The translations under genes and the position numbers were made by a program. Below, piece by piece: positions 40,310 through 40,625 of a stretch of 40,625 nucleotides of DNA. This DNA comes from Escherichia phage Pipis. How positions within the stretch are numbered: position 1 is the first letter of the stretch; each line of letters begins with the position of its first letter. The notes beneath the pieces were generated by a model, which had not been told where the DNA came from, ran no database searches, and saw only the letters and a program-made list of their open reading frames with translations. The stretch lies in the sequence record PV714130; one strand, written 5' to 3'.

Positions 40310-40520
40310 TCTCACAGTTCAAGAACCTCAAGTCTCCCCATAGGCCCTCTTTAAGTCCAGACCAAAGGCCCTACCCGTTACTGCTCCTTGCAGTCACAGC
40401 CAGTCTATCATAAGGTTGGACCGATGGTCAAGACTTCAGGTCAACGATAGGTCTAGGCTATGGCTTAGGGAAGGACGATAGGTGGTGACTATCGGTCTGT
40501 CTTTGAGTCTCTATCTGTAT
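40310..40520 (+). repeat. inferred physical left genome end and terminal-repeat region (approximate extent)
   Basis: TCTCACAG at 40310-40317 matches the first 8 nt of the recalled T7 genome, with further alignable blocks (CCCCATAGG; GTCTCTATCTGT vs T7 GTCCCTATCTGT near the end of the T7 terminal repeat); only one copy is present, so boundaries cannot be measured. Confidence 0.4.
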
Positions 40521-40524
40521 CAGA

Positions 40525-40578
40525 CCTACAGTCTAACTACCTACAGTCTAACTACCTACAGTCTAACTACCTACAGTC
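40525..40578 (+). repeat. tandem 15 bp repeats (CCTACAGTCTAACTA x3.6), analogous to T7 left-end CCTAAAG repeats
   Basis: Three perfect tandem copies 40525-40569 plus a partial copy; related CCTACAG units at 40602-40625. Confidence 0.75.
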
Positions 40579-40625
40579 ATAGACCATCGGTAATGCTGCT
40601 ACCTACAGTCTAAACCTACAGTTAA

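Follow-up and report, generated by a model that had tools for sequence, protein, structure and literature searches.

Predicted terminal repeat and concatemer junction in the genome record of Escherichia phage Pipis

The deposited sequence of Escherichia phage Pipis (PV714130; "the window" below means this whole stretch of 40,625 nucleotides) raises the question of where the linear virion DNA would begin and end. A preliminary description had read the window as a circular permutation, in which the linear genome probably starts at about 40310 and one copy of the terminal repeat has been collapsed. We have followed up this reading by comparison with the terminal repeats, record ends and junction elements of related phages.

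Judged by its sequence, the window appears to be the complete genome of a K1F-like podophage of the genus Kayfunavirus, in the T7 family, and collinear with T7. In the first 25 kb, the part that was compared, PhiNW-B1, MirsaeidiM_Esher2, K1F and Vec13 align in the same order with 94-96% identity and 90-94% coverage (95.7% across 94% for PhiNW-B1, 94.6% across 90% for K1F), and this high nucleotide identity to K1F and its relatives places the window in the genus. A gp18/gp19 terminase, a single-subunit RNA polymerase and a phage promoter reading into the junction are all present (Table 1), and a holin and an Rz-like spanin are also encoded. The gene 19.5 homologue occupies the position of the annotated gp19.5 in EcoDS1 and T7. 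The junction considered below has this gene on one side and the early host promoters and the Ocr-like gene on the other, which is the place of the T7-type junction, past gene 19.5 and ahead of the early host promoters and gene 0.3 of a T7-collinear genome. An Rfam search of the window returned no families.

Table 1. Features of the predicted junction and related genes in the window
Feature	Position	Strand	Detail
A1-like host-RNAP early promoter	110..146	+	TTGACT (110-115), 17-nt spacer, CCTAAT
A3-like host-RNAP early promoter	421..450	+	TTGACA, 18-nt spacer, TAATAT
Ocr-like gene	967-1470
Single-subunit phage RNA polymerase	2327..5008	+	phrog_414, E=0
gp18, terminase small subunit, putatively acting in trans on the junction	36971..37234	+	phrog_1351, E=1e-34
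gp19, terminase large subunit, putatively acting in trans on the junction	37782..39545	+	phrog_38, E=2e-130
phiOR-like promoter, last for the phage RNAP; rightward across gene 19.5 into the junction	39641..39660	+	1 mismatch to the genome's own consensus
Gene 19.5 homologue, last conserved gene ahead of the junction	39842..40000	+	phrog_2193, E=1e-23
Left-flank short repeats, counterpart of the T7 right-end short repeats	40237..40275	+	CCTACGGT, CCTACAGT, CACCACAGT
Unique block left of the repeat	40276..40309	+	CGATGAGTTTTGGACCAAAAGTTTGAGACCACA, 34 nt
Predicted direct terminal repeat (DTR), one copy in the window	40310..40512	+	203 bp; homology to the Mt1B1_P3 and K1F DTRs
Conserved left-terminus nonamer; predicted left end of virion DNA at 40310	40310..40318	+	TCTCACAGT
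Lineage-specific insertion within the repeat	40377..40400 (about)	+	GTTACTGCTCCTTGCAGTCACAGC, 24 nt
Putative concatemer-junction signal right after the repeat	40513..40519	+	ATCTGTA; corresponds to ATCTGTT, the class II pause signal for the RNAP in T7
Right-flank short-repeat array	40520..40622	+	15-bp x 3.7 tandem plus CCTACAGT at 40602 and 40615

Boundaries of the terminal repeat

Each published terminal repeat was run by blastn against the entire window, and the best match always starts at 40310. Bases 1-35 of the T7 repeat fall on 40310-40344 (80% identity, E=0.001), bases 1-71 of the T3 repeat on 40310-40376 (79.5%, E=6e-10), bases 1-178 of the K1F repeat on 40310-40511 (86.6%, E=2e-72) and bases 1-202 of the Mt1B1_P3 repeat on 40310-40512 (95.6%, E=7e-91). 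From 40310 onward the window reads TCTCACAGTTCAAGAACCTCAAGTCTCCCCATAGG, which the preliminary description had aligned with the T7 left terminus. The window string was quoted correctly, the T7 terminus given there equals bases 1-35 of NC_001604, and 28 of the 35 bases are in common.

Concatemer junctions were also built from the linear virion records of relatives and aligned with the window. The left boundary, where GAGACCACA is followed by TCTCACAGT, has a base-exact match in K1F, Vec13, EcoDS1, Mt1B1_P3, T7 and T3; the bases ahead of TCTCACAGT are TTTGAGACCACA in every aligned Kayfunavirus and CTGAGTGACTA in T7. The nonamer itself forms the opening bases of K1F, Vec13, EcoDS1, Mt1B1_P3, T7 and K11, with TCTCATAGT in its place in T3, and the window conforms to the T7-type rule of TCTCA(C/T)AGT at the start of the repeat. 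Taken alone, the nonamer is not significant, occurring twice in the window against 0.9 expected, and the weight therefore rests on the extended match. The unique block immediately to the left is invariant among all aligned Kayfunavirus junctions, has AAAA.T.TGAG in common with T7 and contains a palindrome, TTTTGG-A-CCAAAA, at 40284-40296. The 12 bases preceding the left cut are the same in 9 IMG/VR loci. DNA folding near this cut revealed no excess structure (z = -0.07).

At the right boundary (40505-40519), GAGTCTCT is followed by ATCTGTA, which is the conserved context of the concatemer-junction signal; T7, T3 and K11 have GTGTCCCT followed by ATCTGTT. The window agrees here with the T7-type rule of a repeat ending in TC(T/C)CT and then ATCTGT(T/A). 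ATCTGT(A/T) adjoins the repeat boundary in every relative, and the EcoDS1 and K11 records label it 'concatemeric junction', the heptamer being ATCTGTA in all Kayfunavirus sequences seen and ATCTGTT in T7, T3 and K11. Both boundaries are base-exact across four genera, and both contexts recur in IMG/VR contigs. Exact direct repeats stand at both record ends in Mt1B1_P3 (202 bp), Vec13 (179), K1F (178), EcoDS1 (178) and T7 (160), and terminal repeats are annotated in the EcoDS1, Vec13 and T3 records. From this homology we infer that the virion ends of the Pipis isolate lie at 40310 and 40512. The window has a single copy of the 203-bp segment between them, and virion DNA would have a copy at each end.

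The length of the repeat is accounted for by the 24-nt insertion, because of which it measures 203 bp and not 179 bp. Mt1B1_P3 and phiYIO1-1 have the insertion as well, K1F, Vec13 and EcoDS1 lack it, and it divides Kayfunavirus into lineages with repeats of about 179 and about 203 bp. The repeat also holds a leftward sigma-70-like site on the minus strand (40431-40402; TTGACC, 18-nt spacer, TAGACT, upstream TG) that recalls the leftward A0 promoter annotated within the T3 repeat and does not stand out significantly from shuffled sequence. An inverted repeat that spans the right cut (40487-40499 / 40521-40533) was rejected as a functional element since it is not conserved in Mt1B1_P3 and phiYIO1-1.

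The right end is less exactly placed, with an uncertainty of 1-4 nt. In K1F, the record ends 1 nt short of the repeat boundary of the window, and deposited right ends within the group disagree by up to 4-5 nt; one IMG/VR genome, UViG_2706796157 (39,444 bp), ends in GAGTCTCTATCT, 4 nt past the T7-convention boundary and inside ATCTGTA. Isolate-derived IMG/VR contigs end cleanly at the repeat boundary, and metagenome-derived ones were found without a clean end there. Contig _000061 extends 44 nt beyond the boundary, and contig _000088 stops 179 nt from its repeat start, short of ATCTGTA. Run-off sequencing of the ends has been done for SH3-SH5 (PMC4925675), and the same source cites the K1F repeat, second-hand, as 179 bp.

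The junction could be the right one and the limits in Pipis nevertheless different, with a DTR of 204-207 bp or one reaching further into the 15-bp array. The variation of 1-4 nt among the right ends of close relatives, as between K1F (178 bp), Vec13 (179 bp) and UViG_2706796157, would fit such a shift, as would the 183 bp measured for the SH3 repeat by run-off sequencing (PMC4925675). However, the repeats of T7, T3, EcoDS1, Vec13 and Mt1B1_P3 all stop right before ATCTGT, and run-off sequencing, in which a non-templated base is added, leaves an ambiguity of 1-2 bases (PMC4925675). We consider shifted limits improbable, and 40512 is retained as the predicted right end.

Closure of the record and the missing repeat copy

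The two ends of the window do not overlap, so that closure is invisible from the window alone. The comparison with other sequences bears out the proposed circular permutation, in that Vec13 and an independent Logan contig both have unbroken sequence where the window passes from 40625 to 1. A join-spanning query (40463-40625 plus 1-335) gives one uninterrupted match, at 96-97% identity, to Vec13 137-632 and to Esher2, and the Logan contig, 97.8% identical, covers 40549 to about 3700, join included, with no gap. At the point equivalent to the join, the K1F sequence is CCTACAGTTAATAGACAC. Position 1 of the window corresponds to base 292 of Vec13 (179 + 113), i.e. 113 nt past its 179-bp repeat. 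That the window is not closed, with sequence missing or duplicated at the join, would agree with ends that lack terminal overlap, but the single-piece match in Vec13 and Esher2, the gapless crossing by the Logan contig and the K1F reading across the equivalent point make this very improbable indeed.

A single repeat copy together with a gapless join points to an assembly that is rotated and has lost one DTR copy by collapse. It is very likely, judging from these alignments, that the assembly merged both copies and that the circle was opened arbitrarily, 113 nt beyond the right boundary of the repeat. The proposed start at about 40310 with a collapsed copy thus draws support from homology, from the single copy and from the contiguous join. 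On this prediction, virion DNA should consist of 40310-40625, 1-40309 and then 40310-40512 again, i.e. 40,625 + 203 = about 40,828 bp.

The records of relatives display both arrangements. Among the best 60 related records listed, 19 have a record end at the position equivalent to 40310 or 40512, 15 of these 19 carrying the repeat at both ends, and about 41 of the 60 have a single internal copy, as does the window. In Peacock and Penshu1, the repeat is annotated as a DTR from read pile-ups by PhageTerm. Elek et al. describe how short-read and hybrid assemblers delete T7-like DTRs or put them mid-contig, and note that the true start of T7-like phages is easy to locate from its conserved sequence (PMC10438801).

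It might be supposed instead that packaging is of the headful kind, or that the genome is a true circle without fixed ends, the resemblance at 40310 being a relic. Nothing speaks for this beyond the fact that the window can be drawn as a circle, and three observations speak against it: the terminase is of the T7 type (gp18/gp19), both cut-site contexts are base-exact with phages of determined fixed ends, and terminase phylogeny groups the K1F-like phage F with short-DTR packagers (PMC5582158). Headful (pac) packaging, which entails the lack of fixed ends and a P22/T4-type terminase, does not describe the window. We regard this explanation as barely credible and keep to fixed ends with a collapsed repeat copy.

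Exact-protein look-ups for contigs that define the ends returned none with the products of gene 19.5 and the Ocr-like gene or with the first ORF in its 84-aa form. The 81-aa form of this ORF returned a single contig, the Logan contig that crosses the join; it begins within the 15-bp tandem array, and this start was rejected as a physical end, being an assembly break at a repeat. The GenBank record PP328844.1 (phage 216Ecol046PP) looks mis-assembled at its ends: its left repeat is fused directly to the equivalent of window position 236, and the region due after the repeat sits, partly duplicated, ahead of the right repeat.

The finding is one of ordinary, already known biology combined with a documented assembler artefact, and it contains nothing new on phage biology. 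Its value is curatorial. The record is to be re-opened at 40310 with a second 203-bp copy, giving the virion length stated above, and the correction matters for annotation, genome-length statistics, synthetic rebooting and packaging-signal design.

Flanking elements and a possible route of maturation

The stretch from about 40237 through 40625 to 146 appears to be the equivalent of the T7 concatemer junction. In and around it, the elements follow one another in the order phiOR-like promoter, gene 19.5, 11-nt inverted repeat, short repeats, invariant block, DTR, ATCTGTA, tandem array and early promoters. The inverted repeat is perfect, has a 19-nt spacer (40109-40119 / 40139-40149) and sits just past the last small ORF (40036-40104), upstream of the junction.

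Short repeats stand on both sides of the DTR. The motif CCTACAGT occurs 18 times in the window against 1.6 expected, with 7 copies within 40251-40622; including one-mismatch copies, it is found at 40237 and 40251 on the left and six times within 40525-40622 on the right, where a perfect 15-bp x 3.7 tandem array lies at 40524-40578. The preliminary description had stated that tandem repeats follow the terminus and continue across the window end into position 1. They do follow it, in the form of the tandem array and of CCTACAGT copies up to 40622, but the second part of the statement fails: allowing up to 1 mismatch, CCTACAGT is absent from 1-300, and K1F has the end of its array at the equivalent position, which implies that the repeats stop 3 nt short of the window end.

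The motif is also over-represented outside the junction, where 11 copies occur (1.6 being the expectation for the whole window), e.g. at 5243, 7127, 9423, 18481, 19148, 23418 and 34594. Three copies share a common 21-nt context, at 7118, 23409 and 40593. The array beside the repeat differs among close relatives in unit and copy number: the unit is of 15 nt in the window and Vec13, with different copy numbers, of 18 nt in Mt1B1_P3 and of the CCATAAG type in K1F and EcoDS1.

As had been described from the letters, early-promoter-like elements follow on the other side of the join, and these are the A1-like and A3-like promoters of Table 1. The former, missed by a simple promoter scan, aligns with T7 A1 and with the 'host RNAP promoter' of EcoDS1 at 469-505. 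The latter fits the consensus at 10 of 12 positions, and its aligned counterparts are T7 A3 and, in EcoDS1, the promoter at 764-800. Since sigma-70 and terminator scans of the window performed no better than on shuffled sequence, the promoter calls rest on homology to the annotated T7 and EcoDS1 promoters. Between the two promoters, at about 250-418, the window has about 170 nt that K1F lacks, at the place where T7 and EcoDS1 have A2; this insertion is also found in Vec13, Esher2 and 216Ecol046PP and holds three short hairpins of the CACTGAGG type. RNA folding of the insertion at 236-420 yielded no excess structure (z = -0.08), and it has no Rfam match.

Promoters for the phage polymerase are represented by the 20-nt sequence CTAAACTATCACTATAGGGA, with 11 copies in the window, all on the + strand and none expected. 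The last of them occupies the position of T7 phiOR. From the repeat to 2236, a search tolerating 3 mismatches to the genome's own consensus found no phage-RNAP promoter, indicating that an equivalent of phiOL is absent from this stretch. The segment that aligns with T7 phiOL (about 33-60) retains only ACTATA and is without the initiating GGG; phiOL is annotated in T7, T3 and K11 and not in the EcoDS1 record.

All cis and trans parts for a T7-type maturation are in place in the window. By analogy with T7 and T3, replication would yield concatemers in which head-to-tail genome units are separated by one repeat copy. The phage RNA polymerase, starting from the phiOR-like promoter, would transcribe into the junction and pause at ATCTGTA; the prohead-bound gp18/gp19 terminase would then cut between 40309 and 40310 and between 40512 and 40513, and the second repeat copy would be made by DNA synthesis during maturation. 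For T7-like phages, the concatemers are described as linear, with one repeat copy between units and the second copy synthesised at maturation (PMC10438801). The collapsed assembly hence has the same arrangement as the intracellular junction.

In T7, the polymerase pauses at the class II signal ATCTGTT on the right side of the junction, and any base change in this signal has been reported to abolish termination (bioRxiv 10.1101/2021.01.11.426313). The paused complex contacts gp18 and gp19, which starts maturation and packaging (PMC3276506), and, as summarised in PMC9860248, gp18 recognises pacB and gp19 cleaves at pacC. Since ATCTGTA differs from ATCTGTT at its last base, pausing is the least secure step of the transferred mechanism. 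With phiOL also absent, the coupling of pausing and terminase cutting in Kayfunavirus might differ or be unused. We consider it possible, if rather unlikely, that this coupling uses a different polymerase specificity or is not used, and that the hypervariable 15-18 nt array could tune packaging.

Comparison with known systems

Each sequence-level feature of the T7-type terminal-repeat and concatemer-junction class that could be tested is found in the window, which thus seems to be a member of this class. Its closest counterparts appear, from sequence likeness, to be Mt1B1_P3 and other long-DTR Kayfunavirus phages (phiYIO1-1, PhiNW-B1 and Zappy). The 202-bp exact end repeat of Mt1B1_P3 (MT496969) agrees with 40310-40512 at 95.6% identity, begins and ends with the same bases and includes the same 24-nt insertion. 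It differs in having ATAGTGTTATAGTATAAC, with an 18-nt unit, to the right of the repeat where the window has a 15-nt unit, and in carrying the repeat at both record ends where the window has one copy.

K1F (DQ111067 / AM084414), the type member of Kayfunavirus, is identical over the first 67 bases of the repeat and has both boundary contexts and the gene order in common with the window. In contrast, its repeat is 178-179 bp long, without the 24-nt insertion, and it is without the approximately 170 nt found at 250-418 in the window.

The more distant T7 junction, with its 160-bp repeat, short repeat arrays, phiOR, class II pause signal and pacB/pacC, resembles that of the window in overall layout: in both, gene 19.5 is followed by short repeats, the repeat opening with TCTCACAGT, ATCTGT., short repeats, the A1-A3 promoters and gene 0.3. 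Apart from the opening bases compared above, the interior of the T7 repeat is unrelated in sequence to that of the window. The short-repeat motif is CCTAAAG in T7 and CCTACAG in the window, and the pause heptamer, which ends in T in T7, ends in A in the window, which is without the phiOL promoter.
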